This document shows, piece by piece, positions 2,850 to 47,081 of a DNA stretch of 52,199 nucleotides. Both the position numbers and the translations under genes were made by a program. The DNA lies in assembly GCA_016186095.1 (NCBI GenBank), contig JACPMG010000003.1:1-52199 (forward strand), in the 5' to 3' direction. Numbering within the stretch: position 1 is the stretch's first letter; each line of letters opens with the position of its first letter. The notes beneath the pieces are model-generated. The model was not told the origin of the DNA, made no database searches, and saw only the letters and a program-made list of their open reading frames with translations. Origin of the DNA: Candidatus Sungiibacteriota bacterium. GTDB taxonomy: Bacteria > Patescibacteriota > Minisyncoccia > Sungbacterales > HO2-52-23.

Positions 2850-4559
2850 TTAATTTTCCAAAATCACGAAATCTCCGGGCACGCGTACCCTTAACTGGGG
2901 ATTTTTTTGTTTAATTTCATTAATTAGTGCTTTGTCTTCTCCGTTAAGAAAAGCGATGACTGTCGGCTGATTACTGGTAACTAGTAACTGGTTACTAATA
3001 TTCTGCGGCAATACGTACTCCATATTTTTCTCCTTTTGTCCAGTTTCGCGAAAAGTATCTGTGGCAAACATTACGGTCTGCGCGGGCACGCTGATGCCGC
3101 GCACTTCAACTCCGGGGAGATTTACCACCACATATTTTTTGGTCTCATTCGGAAGACCGTCTAGAAATTTGCCAAGATGCCATAAATCGGTTGAGAAAGC
3201 AAAATAGGTCTCCTCGCTTCCGGCCCAACGGATAAAATAATTCCGGTAGGTAAGAATAGGGATTAGCGTCAGAAGCAAAATCGCCAGAAGCGCCACCTCT
3301 TTTTTTACCCTCTCAAGTTGGCCTATATACGTCGGCCATTTTAACTTCTGCAGATCCAGCCAATTTATAATCTTTTGGTAAATCCACCACGCCCCCAAGC
3401 CTGATAAAATCATCACCGGCGGGATTAGGCCGATGGAGCGAAGCGCATGAGGAAGGCCTTCGCGCGTTAGAGTGGCAGGGAGAGACATAAAGAGGAGCCA
3501 GGCTAGTAAGCTTGTAGTTTGTAGCTTGTAGCTTGTAGCGCGGAAAAATAGCTGACGGAGCATAAGGATAAAACCCGTGAGGAAGAATATGGCTACAACA
3601 GATTGGAGTTGGGGCTGGCAGGCAAAATTATGCCGCCAGTTGCAGTCGCCTCGTATAAAAAACATACCTAATGTTGCCAGATTTGATTTTATAAATTCCT
3701 TCAGAGGCGATATGGATGAGAAAATAGATACGTCTCCGGCTCTTCCCAGAAAGTCCTGCGGATTTTGTACAAAATGTAATCCGAGGGGAAGAGCGACCAC
3801 GAAGGTTATGAGAAAAAAAAGTAGTACCGCGCACGGCGCACAGTATTTATTCGTATAATTGGTATTCATTCGTATATTGGTATCGGTGTTCTTCCACCAT
3901 TTCCACAAATACCAAATAAGTGGAACTGCTAGGACAAACGGTATGAATCTGAAAGCAATGTACGTGTGAAAGCCAAGACCGATAAAAATCCCGGCCCAAA
4001 CCATATCCAGAATTTTTCCTTGCCGAAGCCCTTTTAGCAAAAAATATATTCCAAACGTTGCCAAAAACGGGATCATGATTGCCCGAAACCCTATGCGGGA
4101 GAAATTGATGTGCCAATAGCTCGTGGCCAAAAAGAAAGAGGAGAGCAGCGCTACGAAATACGAATTGGTACGAAAGTACGAAAGATTGTTTTTCGTAATT
4201 TCGTATTCTTTCGTATTTCGTAGCCAATGCGATTGTCCAAACAGTTCTTTGGTTAAAAGGTAAACTCCGAGAATGGTTAAAGTTCCAAAAATGGCGCTGA
4301 CTATTCGCAATGCCCATGGCTCAATTCCAAAAAGCCGAAGCGAGAGCGCCTGCAAATTTATAAATAGCCCTTCGCGGCCGTTATTTTCCGGATAAAACAC
4401 CTTGAAGTCGCCCGTGGCAATGGCTTCAAGCGCGTTATTCCCGTTCATGGCCTCATCCGGATAAAGTCCGGGCGGGACTTCGGTGATTTGGTAGAAACGG
4501 AAAAATGCGCCTATGGCTAGGATAAAAATAAGGGTGGCGAATTTCTGTCTTTTGCTCAC
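2850..4559 (-). CDS. ArnT/PMT-like GT-C glycosyltransferase, second paralog
   Basis: 569 aa with a GTG start. Polytopic, with loop motif LYPDEAMNGNNALEA. Carries three in-frame oligo-repeat modules. Confidence 0.8.
   Translation of the reverse strand: MSKRQKFATLIFILAIGAFFRFYQITEVPPGLYPDEAMNGNNALEAIATGDFKVFYPENNGREGLFINLQALSLRLFGIEPWALRIVSAIFGTLTILGVYLLTKELFGQSHWLRNTKEYEITKNNLSYFRTNSYFVALLSSFFLATSYWHINFSRIGFRAIMIPFLATFGIYFLLKGLRQGKILDMVWAGIFIGLGFHTYIAFRFIPFVLAVPLIWYLWKWWKNTDTNIRMNTNYTNKYCAPCAVLLFFLITFVVALPLGLHFVQNPQDFLGRAGDVSIFSSISPLKEFIKSNLATLGMFFIRGDCNWRHNFACQPQLQSVVAIFFLTGFILMLRQLFFRATSYKLQTTSLLAWLLFMSLPATLTREGLPHALRSIGLIPPVMILSGLGAWWIYQKIINWLDLQKLKWPTYIGQLERVKKEVALLAILLLTLIPILTYRNYFIRWAGSEETYFAFSTDLWHLGKFLDGLPNETKKYVVVNLPGVEVRGISVPAQTVMFATDTFRETGQKEKNMEYVLPQNISNQLLVTSNQPTVIAFLNGEDKALINEIKQKNPQLRVRVPGDFVILEN
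3508..3540. repeat. Tandem 7-mer AGCTTGT array inside a CDS
   Basis: agcttgt agtttgt agcttgt agcttgt agcg, translated on the minus strand as ATSYKLQTTS. Confidence 0.7.
3847..3885. repeat. Tandem TTCGTATA(A)TTGGTAT duplication inside a CDS
   Basis: Two adjacent copies, translated as NTDTNIRMNTNYTNKY. Confidence 0.7.
4150..4224. repeat. 75-nt (25-codon) palindromic ACGAA-rich element inside a CDS
   Basis: GCTACGAAATACGAA (4150-4164) is the exact reverse complement of TTCGTATTTCGTAGC (4210-4224). The length is a multiple of 3 and there is no stop. Confidence 0.75.
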
Positions 4560-9281: not shown

Positions 9282-10475
9282 ATGAGCGAACTTGTTCTCT
9301 ATCGCAAATACCGTCCCAAAAGCTTTGAAGAAGTTGTCGGGCAGGAGCATGTGATAGCGGCGATTACCAACGCCATCAGAACGGGCCGTGCGGCTCATGC
9401 TTATTTATTCTCCGGCCCTCGCGGTATAGGTAAGACGACTGTGGCGCGACTTATCGCCAAAGCCATGAATTGTGCCAATTTGTCCAAACTTTCTGAAGGA
9501 AAGTTTGCTGACAAATTGAGCACCCGCCGAAGCCTTGGCGAAGGCGGGTTTCCTATACCCTGTGATGCCTGCGATCTTTGCAAAAGTTTTAATGAGGGTA
9601 GGGCGTTTGATTTAATTGAAATCGATGCCGCGTCCAACAGGGGTATTGACGAGATACGAGAGCTTCGCGAGGGCGTGCGTTTTGTCCCGTCGCAGGGAAA
9701 ATACAAGACCTACATAATTGACGAGGTGCATCAGCTGACCAAAGAGGCCTTTAACGCGCTTCTGAAAACCCTGGAGGAGCCGCCCTCGCACGCGGTCTTT
9801 GTCTTGGCCACCACCGAGCTTGAGAAAGTTCCGGCAACAATTGTTTCGCGCACCCAGCACTTTGATTTTCGAAGGCCGAATGTTTCGCAAATCGTAAATC
9901 GTCTGACGCATATCGCAAAAAAGGAAAAAGTAGAGCTTGAACCGGACGCGGCGCACTTAATTGCGCTTGCCGCGGAGGGTTCTTTGCGTGATGCTGAAAG
10001 TATTTTGGGGCAGGTTATGGCCGTGGAGGATAAAGAGATTACGCGTCGCGAAGTGGAAAGCATCCTCGGGCTTCCCCGCAGGGAGTCGGCCAAAAAAATG
10101 TTTGAACTGGTGGCCAAAAAAGACGCTTCCGGGGCCCTTACTCTGGTGCAGGAGCTTCACGATGCCGGCCACGACCTAACTTATTTTTCCAAACTTCTCA
10201 TGCAGTATTTCCGCAGTGCGCTTTTTTTGAAAACGGATCCTGAACTTAAAAAATTCGTGATGGGTGAGATGCTGACGGATGAGATTGATTGTATCACGGC
10301 TCATCTTTCGCTCTTTCAGGCGGGTGATCTTTCGCGGGCGGTAAATATCATTTTTGACAATCTGCAATCTTTCAAAAAAACTCCTATTCCTCAACTTCCG
10401 CTTGAACTTACGGTGGTGGAGCTGATTGCGGGATCGGAGAAAAACGCCTATGGAGAAAAGATCAAAGTTATCTAA
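9282..10475 (+). CDS. dnaX: DNA polymerase III subunit gamma/tau (short form)
   Basis: YRPKSFEEVVGQEHV, Walker A GPRGIGKTT, IIDEVHQL and SRTQHF motifs, 397 aa. Confidence 0.9.
   Translation: MSELVLYRKYRPKSFEEVVGQEHVIAAITNAIRTGRAAHAYLFSGPRGIGKTTVARLIAKAMNCANLSKLSEGKFADKLSTRRSLGEGGFPIPCDACDLCKSFNEGRAFDLIEIDAASNRGIDEIRELREGVRFVPSQGKYKTYIIDEVHQLTKEAFNALLKTLEEPPSHAVFVLATTELEKVPATIVSRTQHFDFRRPNVSQIVNRLTHIAKKEKVELEPDAAHLIALAAEGSLRDAESILGQVMAVEDKEITRREVESILGLPRRESAKKMFELVAKKDASGALTLVQELHDAGHDLTYFSKLLMQYFRSALFLKTDPELKKFVMGEMLTDEIDCITAHLSLFQAGDLSRAVNIIFDNLQSFKKTPIPQLPLELTVVELIAGSEKNAYGEKIKVI
9485..9548. repeat. In-frame hairpin insertions in the dnaX zinc-module linker
   Basis: CAAACTTTC-TGAAG-GAAAGTTTG (9485-9507) plus CCCGCCGAAGCCTTGGCGAAGGCGGG (9523-9548). 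The 26-mer recurs exactly at 23579-23604. Confidence 0.75.
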
Positions 10476-11311: not shown

Positions 11312-11348
11312 TTTTGTGCGGGATAGCAACTAATTTAGGTCCGTTTTG

Positions 11349-11373
11349 TCCTTCCGAAGCCAAAGGCGAAGGA
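11349..11373. repeat. GC-rich hairpin of the GCC-AAA-GGC family
   Basis: TCCTTC..GCC-AAA-GGC..GAAGGA. The inner hairpin matches the TCAGCC-AAA-GGCTGA hairpin in the tRNA-like pseudogene. Confidence 0.5.
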
Positions 11374-11439
11374 GGGAGTCCTGGCCCGGCAGAAATCTTG
11401 AGATAAGGTCATAGCCATAGGAACGTATAGTAAACACAT

Positions 11440-12744: not shown

Positions 12745-12756
12745 TAGAGAAAGATC

Positions 12757-12804
12757 CACAAAGAAGTCCTTAGATACTTGATTTCCGGTTAATCGATACC
12801 GGAG
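12757..12804. repeat. Copy 1 of a ~47-nt intergenic direct repeat
   Basis: CACAAAGAAGTCCTTAGATACTTGATTTCCGGTTAATCGATACCGGAG. A near-identical copy lies at 13422-13467. Confidence 0.75.
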
Positions 12805-12954
12805 TGGCCAGCAGCCTTGCGACCCCTACCGAGGCAGGTCAGGCGCCACAAAACGTATGGCGTCTAGGCCGCATGTTTTGTATTTAGGCTTGATTTTTTA
12901 ATATCGATATACTACAAATGGAGTAGTTCCACTAACCTGAATGTGGAGGTTTTT

Positions 12955-13362: not shown

Positions 13363-13421
13363 ATAGATTTCTCAATGCGGTCCCTACCGGGACCCCTCAA
13401 TAGGAGAAGGGGAACGACCCC

Positions 13422-13467
13422 CACAGAAGCCCTTAGGTACTTGATTTCTAGTTAATCGATACCGGAG
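13422..13467. repeat. Copy 2 of the ~47-nt intergenic direct repeat
   Basis: CACAGAAGCCCTTAGGTACTTGATTTCTAGTTAATCGATACCGGAG. Confidence 0.75.
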
Positions 13468-13510
13468 AGATCAGTTGCATTGTTTAACAAGTTTTGTTAT
13501 CATAATCTTC

Positions 13511-15144: not shown

Positions 15145-15273
15145 ATCCCACACATAACTTTCACTGCGCTAAGTGCCAGTAGTAATGCTGTGGGAAAGTT
15201 AATTTTACGTTCACAAAAGACTTGTACGAGATAAAAGCTATTTTTTCTCTTTTGTGAAAGTTATGTGTGGGAT
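15145..15273 (+). promoter_or_regulatory. typA leader with a perfect 20-bp long-range inverted repeat covering the start codons
   Basis: ATCCCACACATAACTTTCAC (15145-15164) is the exact reverse complement of GTGAAAGTTATGTGTGGGAT (15254-15273). A competing 9-bp pairing joins 15211-15219 to 15249-15257. Confidence 0.5.
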
Positions 15274-17140
15274 GGAAATTAGAAATATAGCTATAATCGC
15301 CCATGTTGACCACGGGAAAACCACTCTGACCGATGCCATGCTGCGTCAGACCGGCGTTACCAAAGAAGGTGTTTCCATGGATTCCAATACGCTTGAACTT
15401 GAGCGCGGCATTACGATTTATTCCAAAAACGCGGCTATTTTTTATCCTTCGACAAGCACTTCAGCCATGAGCTCAGTGTCGAATGGCTCAGGACGTCCCG
15501 TAACAAAAATAAATATCGTGGACACTCCGGGACACGCGGATTTTGGATCTGAGGTGGAGCGAGTGCTCCGCTCCATAGATTCCGTACTTTTGGTGGTTGA
15601 CGCGCAGGAGGGGCCGATGCCGCAAACCCGCTTTGTCTTAAAAAAATCGCTTGAGCTTGGCCTGAAGCCGATCGTGATTATCAATAAAATTGATAAAGCC
15701 GCAGCCGATCCGGCGCAATGCGCAGAGCAGGTGCTGGAGCTTTTTTTGGAGCTGGGGGCTGACGATAGCCAAGCGAATTTTCCGATCGTATATGCGAACG
15801 GCAGGGCGGGCATTGCCAAGAAAAAACTTGCTGATGAGTCAAAGGATTTGACGCCGCTGCTGGATACGATTTTGGAGCATGTGCCATCGGCATCCTTGCC
15901 GGAATTATCGTCGCGGCCTCTTCGTTTTCAGCCCTTTAATCTCGCCTATGATAATTTTCTGGGACGCATGGCCGTGGGAAGGGTTTATGAAGGCGTGGTG
16001 CGGCCGGGCATGCAGGTTTTTGTGAAGAAAGACGGCGATGCATCCGCACAGGCAGGCGAAATTTCTTCCGGGAAAATAACTAAAGTTTTTACTTTCAGGG
16101 GCTTGGAAAGAATAGAGGCCGAGGAGGCAGGAGCGGGAGATATAGCGCTTATTGCGGGACTTGAGGGTATTGATATTGGCGTGACCGTTACTACCGATAA
16201 GGAGGCGTTGCCCCTGCCCGCAATTGCGGTTGATGAGCCGACCATTGCGCTTACGTTTCTGGTAAATAATTCTCCGCTTGGAGGACGAGAGGGAAAATTT
16301 GTCACCTCGCGCCAGATCAGGGAATACCTTGAGCGGGAATTGCAGGTGAACGTGGGACTTCGCGTTGACTTTACTTCAGCGGATAGTTTCCGGGTATACG
16401 GAAGAGGGGAGCTTCATATAGCTATCTTGCTGGAAAATATGCGGCGGGCCGGATACGAGGTCCAGGTTTCGCAGCCGCAAGTGATTATTCGCACGGAAAA
16501 CGGGGTGCGGCTGGAGCCTTTTGAGGAAGTGATTGTGGATACTCCCGCAGAATTTCAGGGTGTCATAATTGAGCGCTTGGGGCCACGCGGATTTGTTATG
16601 AAAAATATCTTTCAGAAGGGCGATCTTGTGCGACTTTCGTTTGAAGGGCCCACGCGAGGGCTTCTGGGATATCGCAACCAATTTGTAATTGATACGAAAG
16701 GGGAGGGCATTTTTTCTTCGCGCGTCCTCGGCTTCAGGCCTATGGTCGGAGAAATTTATAAACGCGCGGTGGGCTCCATGATTTCTATGGCGGCCGGAAA
16801 GGCCCTAGGATTTGCTCTTTGGGGCTTGCAGGAGCGCGGCACCCTTTATATAAGTCCCGGAACCGAAGTATATATAGGCATGGTCATAGGCAATACTTCC
16901 AAGGGCGAGGAGATGTCGGTGAATCCGACCAAAGGAAAACAGCTTACCAATGTCCGCGCCGCCGCATCGGATGAGGCGATTGATTTGGTGCCGCCGTTTA
17001 AACTCACCATTGAGCGCGGCCTTGAAGTTGTGGCCGAAGACGAATATCTTGAAGTTACTCCCCAAAGCGTTCGTCTGCGGAAGCAAAACTTGACCGAAGC
17101 GGAGCGCACGAAAGCGAAAAGACAAAAAACATATGACTAA
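15272..17140 (+). CDS. typA: Translational GTPase TypA/BipA
   Basis: AHVDHGKTTL (G1), DTPGHADF (G3), NKID (G4), and a BipA-type C-terminal region. The start could also be ATG 15263 or GTG 15254. Confidence 0.9.
   Translation: MEIRNIAIIAHVDHGKTTLTDAMLRQTGVTKEGVSMDSNTLELERGITIYSKNAAIFYPSTSTSAMSSVSNGSGRPVTKINIVDTPGHADFGSEVERVLRSIDSVLLVVDAQEGPMPQTRFVLKKSLELGLKPIVIINKIDKAAADPAQCAEQVLELFLELGADDSQANFPIVYANGRAGIAKKKLADESKDLTPLLDTILEHVPSASLPELSSRPLRFQPFNLAYDNFLGRMAVGRVYEGVVRPGMQVFVKKDGDASAQAGEISSGKITKVFTFRGLERIEAEEAGAGDIALIAGLEGIDIGVTVTTDKEALPLPAIAVDEPTIALTFLVNNSPLGGREGKFVTSRQIREYLERELQVNVGLRVDFTSADSFRVYGRGELHIAILLENMRRAGYEVQVSQPQVIIRTENGVRLEPFEEVIVDTPAEFQGVIIERLGPRGFVMKNIFQKGDLVRLSFEGPTRGLLGYRNQFVIDTKGEGIFSSRVLGFRPMVGEIYKRAVGSMISMAAGKALGFALWGLQERGTLYISPGTEVYIGMVIGNTSKGEEMSVNPTKGKQLTNVRAAASDEAIDLVPPFKLTIERGLEVVAEDEYLEVTPQSVRLRKQNLTEAERTKAKRQKTYD
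15446..15502. repeat. 57-nt (19-codon) palindromic in-frame insertion in the typA G-domain
   Basis: PSTSTSAMSSVSNGSGRPV lies between AIFY and TKINIVDTPGH, where E. coli BipA has only ND. Nested inverted repeats: TTCGACA (15448-15454)/TGTCGAA (15477-15483) and AGCCAT/ATGGCT. Confidence 0.7.
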
Positions 17141-23119: not shown

Positions 23120-24052
23120 ATGGAAGAGAAAAATATAAAAGATCATATACTTCCGGCAAGCATCCTGATTGCTGCCGTCGTTATTGCCGGTGCCTGGGTA
23201 TATACCGCGAGATTAAAGGAAGCTCCGACGCTCCGGCTGCAGAGTGCGTCGGAGATCGGAGTCCCGACTTCGGAGGACGTCGGGAAAAAAGTTCTACCCT
23301 CTCAAGGAGTAGTCTTGCCTATCCGTTGGGGAGATCTTGGCGTCAAAATGGTCAGCGTAGGCCTGATCGATAAAGAGAGATTTGGAACTCTTTATGCGGA
23401 GCGCGGAGGTTTGAGCGCGGAAGAAAGAAAATTTCTTGAGCAGGCCGATAATGGTCAGATAAAGATTACTCCGCATAATTCCGGGATCTGGTTAAATATT
23501 TTTTGGGCCTTGGGATTGGGTACGAAAAATGATATTCTAGATGCAGGACCTATGGTGAGGTATGGCGGCGCGGGCTCGCCCGCCGAAGCCTTGGCGAAGG
23601 CGGGAAATTTTGCTTCAACCGGCGGATGGACTTTATCCAAAGGGGACGCCATGGAGCATTATAGTCGTCATCCTTTGATAGCATTGACGCCGGAGGAGCA
23701 GGAGCTGGTTGAACGCGTGAGTAAAAATATTTATCGTCCCTGCTGTAACAATCCGACCTATTTTCCCGACTGCAATCACGGCATGGCCATGCTCGGCCTA
23801 CTCGAACTTATGGCCTCGCAGGGTGTAAATGAAGAAGAAATGTATAAAGCCGCTTTGCAGGTTAACGCTTACTGGTTCCCGGATACCTATTTGACCATCG
23901 CCCAGTATTTGTCGTCCCAGGGAGTCAGCTGGGAAGAAGTAAATCCCAAAGAAATTTTGGGAGCAAACTATTCCAGCGGCTCCGGGTATCGCAAGATTCT
24001 TGATCAAGTCACCGTACCCGAAAGAAGAGGCGGCGGAAGCTGCGGAGTTTAG
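23120..24052 (+). CDS. Hypothetical membrane-anchored protein with a Cys/His motif
   Basis: 310 aa with CCNNPTYFPDCNHGMAM. Carries two palindromic insertions. Confidence 0.55.
   Translation: MEEKNIKDHILPASILIAAVVIAGAWVYTARLKEAPTLRLQSASEIGVPTSEDVGKKVLPSQGVVLPIRWGDLGVKMVSVGLIDKERFGTLYAERGGLSAEERKFLEQADNGQIKITPHNSGIWLNIFWALGLGTKNDILDAGPMVRYGGAGSPAEALAKAGNFASTGGWTLSKGDAMEHYSRHPLIALTPEEQELVERVSKNIYRPCCNNPTYFPDCNHGMAMLGLLELMASQGVNEEEMYKAALQVNAYWFPDTYLTIAQYLSSQGVSWEEVNPKEILGANYSSGSGYRKILDQVTVPERRGGGSCGV
23223..23285. repeat. 63-nt in-frame double-hairpin element (CTCCGAC/TCCCGAC family)
   Basis: CTCCGACGC (23223-23231)/GCGTCGGAG (23246-23254) and TCCCGAC (23262-23268)/GTCGGGA (23279-23285). Encodes APTLRLQSASEIGVPTSEDVG. 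Confidence 0.75.
23579..23604. repeat. 26-nt palindromic element identical to 9523-9548
   Basis: CCCGCCGAAGCCTTGGCGAAGGCGGG. Read here as PAEALAKAG, but as TRRSLGEGG in dnaX. Confidence 0.8.
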
Positions 24053-34940: not shown

Positions 34941-35040
34941 TTGACTTTAATATACCATGCCGTGCGTTTTTATCCAAATTCGGCTTATCCACATAGGCCT
35001 CTGGATTTATGGGGGCTGGTCGGATTATAATATAGAGCAT

Positions 35041-35595
35041 ATGAACACACTTTATGTTATTTTGGCGGCCATAGGTTTTTTGCTTTTGGCGCTGGCATTT
35101 ATTTATAACAGTTTAATAAGGAAACGAAATCAAGTCGGGGAAGCGTGGTCTGACATTGAAGTTCAGATGAAACGCAGATACGATCTTATACCGAATGTGG
35201 TGGAGGCCGTAAAAGGCTACGTTCTGCATGAACGGGGTGTTTTGGAAAATGTTACTCGGGCGCGGACCCAAGCCATGGGAGCGCATACGCCGCAGGAGCA
35301 TGCCCAGGCTGAAAATATGCTTACCGATACCCTAAAAACTCTTTTCGCGGTGGCGGAGAATTATCCGGATTTGAAAGCCAATGCCAATTTTCTGGATCTG
35401 CAGAGGGAACTTGCCGATACCGAAAATAAAATCCAGTCCGCGCGTCGGTTCTACAACGGGAATGTCCGCGATTACAATACCGCCGTTCAATCTTTTCCGA
35501 CTAATCTGGTTGCGAGAGCCTTTGGCTTCACCGGGAAAGAATTTTTTGATCTAGAAGAGGAAGCGGCAAGGCAGCCGGTAGGAGTCAGGTTCTAA
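35041..35595 (+). CDS. lemA: LemA family protein
   Basis: N-terminal TM, then NSLIRKRNQVGEAWSDIEVQMKRRYDLIPN, ENYPDLKAN and ARRFYN. Confidence 0.85.
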   Translation: MNTLYVILAAIGFLLLALAFIYNSLIRKRNQVGEAWSDIEVQMKRRYDLIPNVVEAVKGYVLHERGVLENVTRARTQAMGAHTPQEHAQAENMLTDTLKTLFAVAENYPDLKANANFLDLQRELADTENKIQSARRFYNGNVRDYNTAVQSFPTNLVARAFGFTGKEFFDLEEEAARQPVGVRF

Positions 35596-46524: not shown

Positions 46525-46665
46525 TCCGGCGTAGCTCAGTGGTAGACCTGCCTGCCGGTAGGCAGGGCGGCTCGCTGTTCCAATCGGAGGATGATCCGCC
46601 TCTGGCGGAAACGAGAAGGTCCCAGGTTCTCAGCCAAAGGCTGATTCGCCTCCGGCGAAGAATCC
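46525..46665 (+). pseudogene. tRNA-Asn-like gene carrying three hairpin insertions and lacking its 3' end
   Basis: After removing 46547-46566, 46580-46609 and 46630-46659, the remaining 55 nt differ at one position from the body of the intact tRNA-Asn at 46700-46771. Confidence 0.6.
46624..46665. repeat. 42-bp direct repeat, left copy
   Basis: AGGTTCTCAGCCAAAGGCTGATTCGCCTCCGGCGAAGAATCC, identical to 47040-47081. Confidence 0.9.
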
Positions 46666-46699
46666 ATAACAATTTTAATTTCATTGTAAAACCATTTTC

Positions 46700-46771
46700 T
46701 CCCCAGTAGCTCAGCGGTAGAGCGGCTCGCTGTTAACGAGAAGGTCCCAGGTTCGAATCCTGGCTGGGGAG
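46700..46771 (+). tRNA. tRNA-Asn (anticodon GUU)
   Basis: Hand fold: acceptor TCCCCAG/CTGGGGA, anticodon loop CTGTTAA, T-loop TTCGAAT. Flanked by a perfect 14-bp leader/trailer inverted repeat. Confidence 0.9.
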
Positions 46772-46798
46772 AAAATGGTTTTACTATTTTTTATACAG

Positions 46799-47041
46799 AT
46801 GTTTTTCATATATGTGTTGCAAAGTATTTCATATGGAACGCGTTATGCCGGTAGTACTGATAATATAGAAAAAAGATTGAGCGAACATAATAAGGGCCGT
46901 TGCCGATATACCAGCGGACGCAAGCCATGGGAGATTGTATATCGGGAAAAATTTGAGTCAAGGGGTGAAGCAATGAAGCGCGAAAAATTTCTAAAATCGG
47001 GACAAGGAAGAAAATGGCTAGACGATAATTTATCCGGTTAG
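46799..47041 (+). CDS. GIY-YIG nuclease family protein (UPF0213-like)
   Basis: MFFIYVLQS..YGTRYAGSTDNIEKRLSEHNKG...KPWEIVYREKFESRGEAMKREKFLKS. About 80 aa from ATG 46799. Confidence 0.8.
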   Translation: MFFIYVLQSISYGTRYAGSTDNIEKRLSEHNKGRCRYTSGRKPWEIVYREKFESRGEAMKREKFLKSGQGRKWLDDNLSG

Positions 47042-47081
47042 GTTCTCAGCCAAAGGCTGATTCGCCTCCGGCGAAGAATCC
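47040..47081. repeat. 42-bp direct repeat, right copy
   Basis: Identical to 46624-46665. Overlaps the GIY-YIG stop codon. Followed by a tRNA-3'-end-like TGCCCGGGGAGG. Confidence 0.9.

Follow-up and report, generated by a model that had tools for sequence, protein, structure and literature searches.

The 52,199-nt contig JACPMG010000003.1 of a Candidatus Sungiibacteriota bacterium (the window, that is, the whole stretch of DNA analysed) carries exactly two copies of a 26-nt palindromic sequence, CCCGCCGAAGCCTTGGCGAAGGCGGG, both on the forward strand (Table 1). The first lies inside dnaX and the second inside a 310-aa open reading frame (ORF310) specific to the Candidate Phyla Radiation (CPR), for which a Pfam scan returned no family. 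An initial annotation had reported this pair, and its sequence and positions were confirmed. The 26-mer did not occur in 100 dinucleotide-preserving shuffles of the window, where no copy is expected by chance, and a search of the window allowing up to three mismatches found nothing matching it besides the two exact copies. A third, diverged family member was recovered with a covariance model (R1) in intergenic DNA, 33 nt downstream of tRNA-Gln.

Table 1. Features of the window associated with the palindromic element
Feature	Coordinates	Strand	Description	Support
dnaX	9282..10475	+	397 aa, clamp-loader gamma/tau; DNA_pol3_delta2, lid and gamma3 domains	Pfam
AT-rich palindrome	9477..9517	+	41 nt, separate element just 5' of copy 1 in the dnaX linker; AATTTGTC-CAAACTTTC-TGAAG-GAAAGTTTG-CT-GACAAATT	
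Tag position of copy 1	9519..9522	+	AGCA, unlike the usual CYTG	
Copy 1 of the hairpin	9523..9548	+	CCCGCC-GAA-GC-CTTG-GC-GAA-GGCGGG, read RRSLGEGG in dnaX	R1, 41 bits
Third, diverged family member	11345..11377	+	Tag TTTG + TCCTTCC-GAA-GCC-AAA-GGC-GAA-GGAGGGA (hairpin 11349-11377)	R1, 20 bits, E=0.009
ORF310	23120..24052	+	310 aa, CPR-specific; N-terminal hydrophobic segment, conserved RPCCNNP..FPDCNHG	
Copy 2, full 30-nt unit	23575..23604	+	Tag CTCG (23575-23578) + 26-nt hairpin (23579-23604), read SPAEALAKAG	R1, 49.5 bits

Structure and coding capacity of the 26-nt element

The 26-mer is an imperfect palindrome: a stem of 6 bp leads through a symmetric GAA/GAA internal loop to a GC-CTTG-GC tip. 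As RNA it is predicted to fold as ((((((...((....))...)))))) at -14.5 kcal/mol, with the two GAA triplets opposed and unpaired. The earlier label of palindrome calls for this qualification. Size and shape agree with those of repetitive extragenic palindromic (REP) sequences (26 nt, 6-bp stem, 3x3 internal loop, 2-3 bp tip).

Direct reading of the sequence reveals no stop codon in any of the six frames. The six peptides encoded by the element are PAEALAKAG, RRSLGEGG, PPKPWRRR, PAFAKASAG, RLRQGFGG and PPSPRLRR. The two window copies are indeed read in different frames, as first proposed: dnaX reads S-T-R-R-S-L-G-E-G-G and ORF310 reads S-P-A-E-A-L-A-K-A-G.

A modular family of tagged hairpins

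The 26-mer probably represents the most frequent form in a large family of miniature palindromic DNA repeats. Family members take the form [C/T]CCGCC - G[A/T]A - GC - (CTTG/CTCG/TTTA/TTCA) - GC - G[A/G]A - GGCGG[G/A], and an unpaired 4-nt tag, usually CTTG or CCTG, precedes the hairpin. Model R1, built from 18 variants, detected about 40 further variants in the loci analysed besides the diverged third copy of the window. In the alignment fitted to this model, 99% of cells pair and both-side changes affect 6 of 8 stem pairs, with no shuffle or slid control coming near this covariation; because it was fitted to the model, the alignment leans towards the structure and counts only as support.

A degenerate pattern scan of IMG/VR returned 134 family members. 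Their tips were CTCG (38), CTTG (31), TTTA (13) or TTCA (9), their internal loops GAA/GAA (38), GTA/GAA (28), GTA/GGA (12) or GAA/GGA (11), and their tags included CCTG (31) and CTTG (23). The outermost pair covaries, being C-G in 44 members and T-A in 46. Since the loop ends also covary, as C..G or T..A, the tip is read as a 3-bp stem with a TY loop. The window's 26-mer accounts for 6 of the 134 and represents one common variant of a modular family, whose modules recur within single genomes (L007, L057, L095, L104) and across phyla.

No Rfam family covered the element, either at the gathering score or at E-values up to 10, and assignment to a known RNA family was rejected on this basis. A bulge-helix-bulge intron and a d(GCGAAGC)-type mini-hairpin were also discarded, the geometry read from the sequence being unsuitable for both.

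Insertion as a 30-nt unit

Comparison with orthologues, recommended in the initial annotation for dnaX, places both window copies within insertions and corrects the size of the relevant unit from 26 to 30 nt. Three filled-versus-empty comparisons, two in dnaX and one in ORF310, each define a 30-nt insertion composed of a 4-nt tag and the hairpin. The dnaX genes of L120 and L121 contain CCTG+CCCGCCGAAATCTTGATGAAGGAGGG between ATTG and AGCA, which the window is without; the inner stem of this insert is altered compensatorily, from GC/GC to AT/AT. L120 additionally carries CCTG+TCCGCCAAAGCTTCAGCGACGGCGGA nested within its own copy of the 26-mer (CCCGCCGA^AGCC...). For ORF310, the empty allele reads GGCGGCGCGGG^CAATTTT and the filled allele GGCGGCGCGGG[CTCG+26-mer]AAATTTT, a difference of exactly 30 nt. 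The tag is absent from the empty sites and was carried along by all three insertions. These comparisons show what appears to be copying of the family into new sites as a 30-nt unit of tag plus hairpin.

G-C-Y-T-G emerges as the 5' flank consensus of 128 exact copies (tags CTTG 33, CCTG 27, CTCG 7), and the 3' flank is random. CYTG-tagged hairpins in general were not enriched in the window over those with other tetranucleotides. The bases upstream of the tag share microhomology with the 3' end of the element: a match of 1 nt or more occurs in 59% of copies versus 28% of controls, and one of 3 nt or more in 18% versus 1.3%. ORF310 provides an example, where GCGGG (23570-23574), just before the tag, repeats the last 5 nt of the element.

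Copies survive inside ORFs because the element has no stop in six frames and the 30-nt length of the unit keeps the frame. Insertions in permissive surface loops, such as the zinc-module loop of dnaX and the site in ORF310, therefore persist and are translated.

Conservation of the hairpin as DNA in ORF310

A 10-residue insert of the AEALAKAG type (xSPAEALAKAG) is present in 29 of the 120 closest ORF310 homologues, and most others read ...YGGAGNF... at this point. Insert-bearing orthologues share 56-63% amino-acid identity with the window protein, and their hairpin DNA matches the 26-mer at 26/26 positions (L135), 25/26 (L164, L191), 23/26 (L133) or 20/26 (L141). Where amino acids are identical, the same codon is used in 40-46% of cases outside the hairpin versus 22/22 inside it (8/8, 7/7 and 7/7 in L135, L164 and L191, respectively). 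The 4-nt tag drifts among these orthologues (CTCG, TTCA, CTTG, CCGG). Conservation thus acts on the hairpin DNA itself and not on the encoded peptide, which bears out the proposal originally drawn from identical DNA in differing frames. A conserved protein motif is ruled out by those frames, by antisense copies and by the contrast in codon identity.

Some copies appear to be held at, or reset to, the family consensus, through selection, conversion between copies or re-insertion, and others to decay. As judged from protein identities, insert-bearing alleles do not seem to form a clade: identity is 64.6% between insert-bearing proteins and 66.0% between these and proteins without the insert, and the nearest neighbour also bears the insert for 11 of the 29 alleles (6.8 expected). 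The insert-bearing alleles nonetheless share a linked 2-codon difference upstream.

The hairpin-rich linker of dnaX

Both palindromes of dnaX fall inside a 28-aa linker (residues 65-92) that separates the first Cys (NC) from the PCxxCxxC of the zinc module. As had been pointed out, the E. coli DnaX linker has 7 aa (ETGITAT), and the BLASTP alignment of the two proteins contains a 21-residue gap. Alignment of the 120 closest DnaX proteins (65-77% identity) gives a short NC-PCN linker, of roughly 4-6 residues, in about 100 of them. The long insert is common to the window protein and four relatives (P0002, P0004, P0008, P0010), and unrelated inserts occupy the same point in other relatives. DNA comparison resolves the window insert into the AT-rich palindrome, GAGCA and the 26-mer, in this order; a syntenic dnaX orthologue with 77% identity (L124) is without any part of it.

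The second hairpin noted at the outset, CAAACTTTC-TGAAG-GAAAGTTTG at 9485-9507, is real and forms the core of the longer 41-nt palindrome, whose arms vary compensatorily among orthologues (TAGAATTTC/GAAATTCTA in L121). This AT-rich hairpin was rejected as a repeat family, since in the DNA analysed it was seen at the dnaX site of five related genomes only. Upstream of the orthologous 26-nt hairpin, (G)AGCA is found in L120, L121 and L122 and AAGCG in L123; the shared odd tag argues for one old insertion. The window copy is exact, L120 has one mismatch, and L121-L123 have indels or seven mismatches.

An AlphaFold2 model of DnaX based on 49 homologues has a mean predicted local distance difference test (pLDDT) score of 82, with values below 50 for insert residues 71-90. 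The insert is accordingly predicted to fall in a disordered loop of the zinc module. Other Sungbacteria bear different hairpins at the same site, namely a perfect 16-bp palindrome (L213) and a GC-rich GAA/GGA hairpin (L214), so the linker constitutes a permissive hotspot. The L213 palindrome, TTCGAAGTTCGACTTCC-GCG-GGAAGTCGAACTTCGAC, encodes SKFDFRGKSNFDG, and the 63-nt linker segment containing it folds at -26.9 kcal/mol (RNAfold). Peptides of the SDF..GK..SDF type, like that of L213, occur in P0007 and P0011, with a looser SGGKSDLKSF in P0006, which suggests that such inserts may represent another hairpin family.

Distribution and genomic context

The initial annotation had allowed for gene conversion of a homologous protein segment in case no further copies existed. 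A scan of species-representative genomes instead recovered the exact 26-mer from the genomes of at least 119 species that span about 9 phyla, with unrelated flanks. The matches listed include Acidobacteriota, Verrucomicrobiota and the wider PVC group, Bacteroidota (Chitinophagaceae, Saprospiraceae), many Patescibacteria, Alpha- and Gammaproteobacteria, Myxococcota, Planctomycetota, Anaerolineales and one isolate, Reyranella soli; no cyanobacterium appears among the 80 genome titles listed. Six IMG/VR contigs contain the exact sequence. Plasmid-borne spread was rejected, as 7.3 Gb of PLSDB plasmids held no exact 26-mer and only partial, chance-level matches. An assembly artefact was dismissed as well, given that copies lie in frame, that diverged orthologues come from independent datasets (JGI, ENA, Logan, NCBI) and that one isolate genome carries the sequence.

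Host ORFs were analysed in low-GC loci, where long ORFs are reliable, and host proteins were named by reading the translated ORFs rather than by family search. The genes so identified encode PriA, topoisomerase I (TopA, with the copy in the zinc ribbon), LeuRS, CysRS, UvrC, MutM, PolX, MnmA, YchF, ribosomal protein L10, phosphoenolpyruvate (PEP) synthase and glycosyltransferases. Within long ORFs of these loci, 13 copies are sense and 11 antisense, in all three frames each way; the record of frame and strand called for earlier is therefore frame-independent. Orientation relative to local GC skew is 51:66 (p=0.2), so that neither transcription nor replication direction biases it. Nesting, junction microhomology to the 3' end of the element, and insertion independent of frame and orientation are all shown.

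In higher-GC genomes, copies are often intergenic and clustered with related or partial hairpins. Tandem arrays of hairpins with a 30-31 nt period occur in L020 and L051. In L002, L047, L066, L069 and L117, copies are bordered by tandem repeats of hexamers or heptamers; such flanks lie in metagenome-assembled genomes of Bacteroidota, Verrucomicrobiota and Acidobacteriota, with runs such as GATTCGT x n, ATTTGCG x n and AACAGG x n, and recall the short tandemly repeated repetitive (STRR) sequences of cyanobacteria. Copies adjoin tRNA genes in L038, L042 and L075. A bona fide RNase P RNA (L077, 191 bits) contains another, and there the 3' GGCGGG of the element also serves as the native 3' helix strand.

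Other hairpins and repeats in the window

Several further repeats were observed in the window. A stretch resembling the neighbouring tRNA-Asn gene (46527-46665) is broken by three small hairpin insertions: CCTG+CCTGCCGGTAGGCAGG follows GGTAGA, a second insert, of 30 nt, interrupts the anticodon loop, and the T loop holds TCAGCCAAAGGCTGA. No tRNA was called in this stretch by ARAGORN. Its last 42 nt (46624-46665) are repeated exactly at 47040-47081, 416 nt downstream, and the two repeats bracket an intact tRNA-Asn (46699-46772) and an 88-aa ORF (46775-47041) that appears GIY-YIG nuclease-like by eye. The arrangement could represent either an integrated element or a tRNA copy in decay. A near-identical 20-nt segment, GCGGAC[C/G]CAAGCCATGGGAG, at 35262-35281 (ORF 34957-35595) and 46914-46933 (the 88-aa ORF) suggests that the two ORFs are paralogous GIY-YIG-like genes. 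Inverted repeats of 23-24 nt flank tRNA-Gln (11225-11247/11304-11326, 87% complementary) and tRNA-Asn (46683-46706/46764-46787, 96%), and, when paired, would lengthen the acceptor stem to give a long precursor helix.

On the reverse strand, ORF 2850-4559 contains a 75-nt intragenic palindrome (4150-4224) with 34-nt arms of TACGAAA-like heptamers (-39 kcal/mol), which encodes WLRNTKEYEITKNNLSYFRTNSYFVA in a 569-aa membrane glycosyltransferase-like protein. Several types of hairpin insert are accommodated by the coding DNA of this genome. Two perfectly complementary 20-nt arms, 89 nt apart (15145-15164/15254-15273), make up an inverted repeat that folds into a long stem (-48 kcal/mol for a 141-nt segment) and overlaps the GTG start listed for ORF 15254-17140; it has no Rfam match. 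A 71-nt direct repeat (12749-12819 and 13412-13482; 80% identity, 663 nt apart) occupies the part of the window with the lowest GC content (about 40%).

Proposed mode of spread

The element probably belongs to a mobile family of tagged miniature hairpins that is copied to new sites as a 30-nt unit and conserved as DNA. The copying mechanism that we infer from sequence would be a copy-and-paste step starting where the target ends in bases like the 3' end of the element (...GGG). A DNA end finishing in ...GGG would pair with a donor copy at its end, where tandem arrays continue with CTTG and the next hairpin; synthesis would return to the original template once one unit had been copied. Such a step could be a template switch onto another copy or a tandem array, or, alternatively, a single-strand hairpin transposition. 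Old copies would be re-homogenised against other copies, or decay.

A number of observations weigh against such mobility. Neither the window nor about 2 Mb of flanks yielded a mobilising gene, a weak objection given that such genes are single-copy: a phmmer search of six-frame ORFs with E. coli RayT, a single query of limited reach, gave no match in this DNA, and all-against-all BLASTP clustering of the flank ORFs (about 2 Mb) returned generic families only and no recurrent neighbour gene. The case for movement rests on comparisons between species. The window holds three family members, two of them intragenic, a count that covers 52 kb only. In dnaX the tag of the copy is non-canonical (AGCA), and orthologous copies show 1 to 7 or more differences, so some copies simply decay. 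Finally, exact identity across phyla is beyond the ordinary vertical inheritance of a neutral repeat, and requires either sequence-specific constraint or frequent transfer.

A bolder form of the proposal, which we offer tentatively and regard as rather unlikely, would make the 30-nt unit a self-propagating replicator with no enzyme of its own. The universal replication or repair machinery of its hosts would copy it by microhomology-primed template switching, and it would cross phyla, settle even in the minimal genomes of the CPR, invade essential genes in frame, and stay letter-perfect through re-copying or conversion.

Functional RNA, REP and uptake-signal explanations

The element could instead be a functional RNA hairpin of mRNAs and non-coding RNAs, a processing, stability or protein-binding signal read by a universal factor and kept by selection without selfish spread. 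The stability of the fold, a GAA/GAA loop and YTYR tip conserved while the stems covary, nucleotide-level conservation of orthologous copies, and the positions beside tRNAs and inside RNase P RNA are all consistent with such a role, and REPs have been reported to affect mRNA stability (PMC3733652). Nevertheless, random orientation to host ORFs means that half of the transcripts carry the UUC/UUC version, neither a GC-skew bias nor an Rfam match is present, and many orthologous copies decay (L123, L141). An RNA function would also leave insertion into unrelated essential proteins unexplained, and we judge this explanation improbable.

Tagged REPs comprise the GTAG and CGTC super-families (Di Nocera, De Gregorio & Rocco 2013, PMC3733652). 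In the E. coli-type (GTAG-3) members, the stem is accompanied by an unpaired 4-nt tag, by trinucleotides that are not complementary and by a short GC-flanked loop with a central TY (PMC3733652). Intragenic REPs are known, often in replication and repair genes, where they add peptide (PMC3733652), and REPINs are associated with REP-associated tyrosine transposases (RAYTs; PMC3116915). The present family is built alike, as an imperfect palindrome of 20-40 nt with an unpaired 4-nt terminal tag, a trinucleotide mismatch, a GC-flanked TY tip and covarying stems, and likewise occurs as singletons, dimers and clusters, with some copies inside genes. Its architecture and the intragenic precedents would fit an ordinary REP family moved by a RAYT (an HUH Y1 enzyme) encoded elsewhere in the genome, with CYTG in the role of GTAG. 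However, the usual tag is CYTG rather than GTAG or CGTC among the 128 exact copies, with the same pattern in IMG/VR; the search with E. coli RayT found no homologue in the window or in about 2 Mb of flanks; and the three insertions bring their own tag instead of landing beside a pre-existing tetranucleotide. The copy unit as defined here is also 30 nt, tag included, and unlike REPs the same sequence is found in many phyla, CPR included. Since the tag does not conform and no RAYT was found in the DNA searched, the element is not filed under the GTAG or CGTC super-families, and an ordinary RAYT-driven REP family seems an unlikely account.

Uptake sequences are enriched in genome-maintenance genes, and a DNA-uptake-like signal spread by molecular drive, in which preferred uptake would keep the sequence exact and scatter it over the gene tree, would agree with the insert-bearing ORF310 alleles forming no clade and with an exactly kept sequence in both orientations and all frames; it is nonetheless highly improbable, because copies arise as 30-nt and nested insertions and not by point mutation, one signal common to about 9 phyla would have no known precedent, and the ORF310 gene tree is poorly resolved, so that the scatter may be noise.

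Relation to known palindromic repeats

The mobile family preferred here can be set beside other small repeats. Rickettsia palindromic elements (RPEs) are palindromic repeats that lie in frame in functional protein genes and are translated (Ogata et al. 2000, cited in PMC3733652). The hairpin family resembles them in its in-frame insertion, its translation and its tolerance in surface regions. Both dnaX and ORF310 remain intact and have orthologues without the insert, and the same applies to CPR housekeeping genes. RPE-1 elements measure about 100-150 bp and are known only from Rickettsia, in contrast to a 30-nt unit with hosts across phyla. The small dispersed repeats (SDRs) of cyanobacteria are reported to be apparently mobile hairpin repeats of 21-27 nt, mutually nested, located beside heptamer repeats and in structural RNA genes, and are said to have been described only in Nostoc and relatives. 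By that description, the 26-nt hairpin is alike in length, in nesting (L120), in heptamer flanks (L117, L066, L047) and in its presence in RNase P RNA (L077), and appears to differ in its in-frame insertion into essential genes and its pan-phylum spread.

Hairpins with a short 5' motif also characterize the single-strand transposition of IS200/IS605-type elements and their hairpin derivatives, the palindrome-associated transposable elements (PATEs), and single-stranded DNA chemistry would suit a 30-nt hairpin. IS200/IS605 elements, however, insert 3' of an existing tetranucleotide of the target, whereas the empty sites here have no tag and TnpA was not found.

The 26-mer, its sub-strings and the six peptides appeared in no searchable paper, nor did palindromic insertions in CPR; the SDR study of Elhai and colleagues (2008, Genome Res 18:1484) lay outside the reach of this search. 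On balance, the element is most aptly viewed as a REP-like or SDR-like miniature palindromic repeat of a new, CYTG-tagged type. Similar in kind to small palindromic repeats already known, it has an unusually wide distribution, and it goes beyond the descriptions found in three respects: its sharply defined 30-nt unit, its routine in-frame residence in essential CPR genes and its letter-for-letter sharing across many phyla.

Implications

If this interpretation holds, the phenomenon represented by REPs, RPEs and SDRs extends to the CPR and to many soil and freshwater phyla. Essential proteins, including DnaX, PriA, TopA, aminoacyl-tRNA synthetases and L10, would routinely bear 10 translated codons of selfish DNA. 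The six peptides would constitute recurrent pseudo-motifs able to mislead protein alignments, domain calls, and metagenome assembly or binning. A tiny and exact 30-nt unit, together with junction microhomology, would also make the long-open question of how REP-like sequences are copied testable. Should the unit prove to be an enzyme-free replicator, few known mobile elements would be smaller or more widely distributed.

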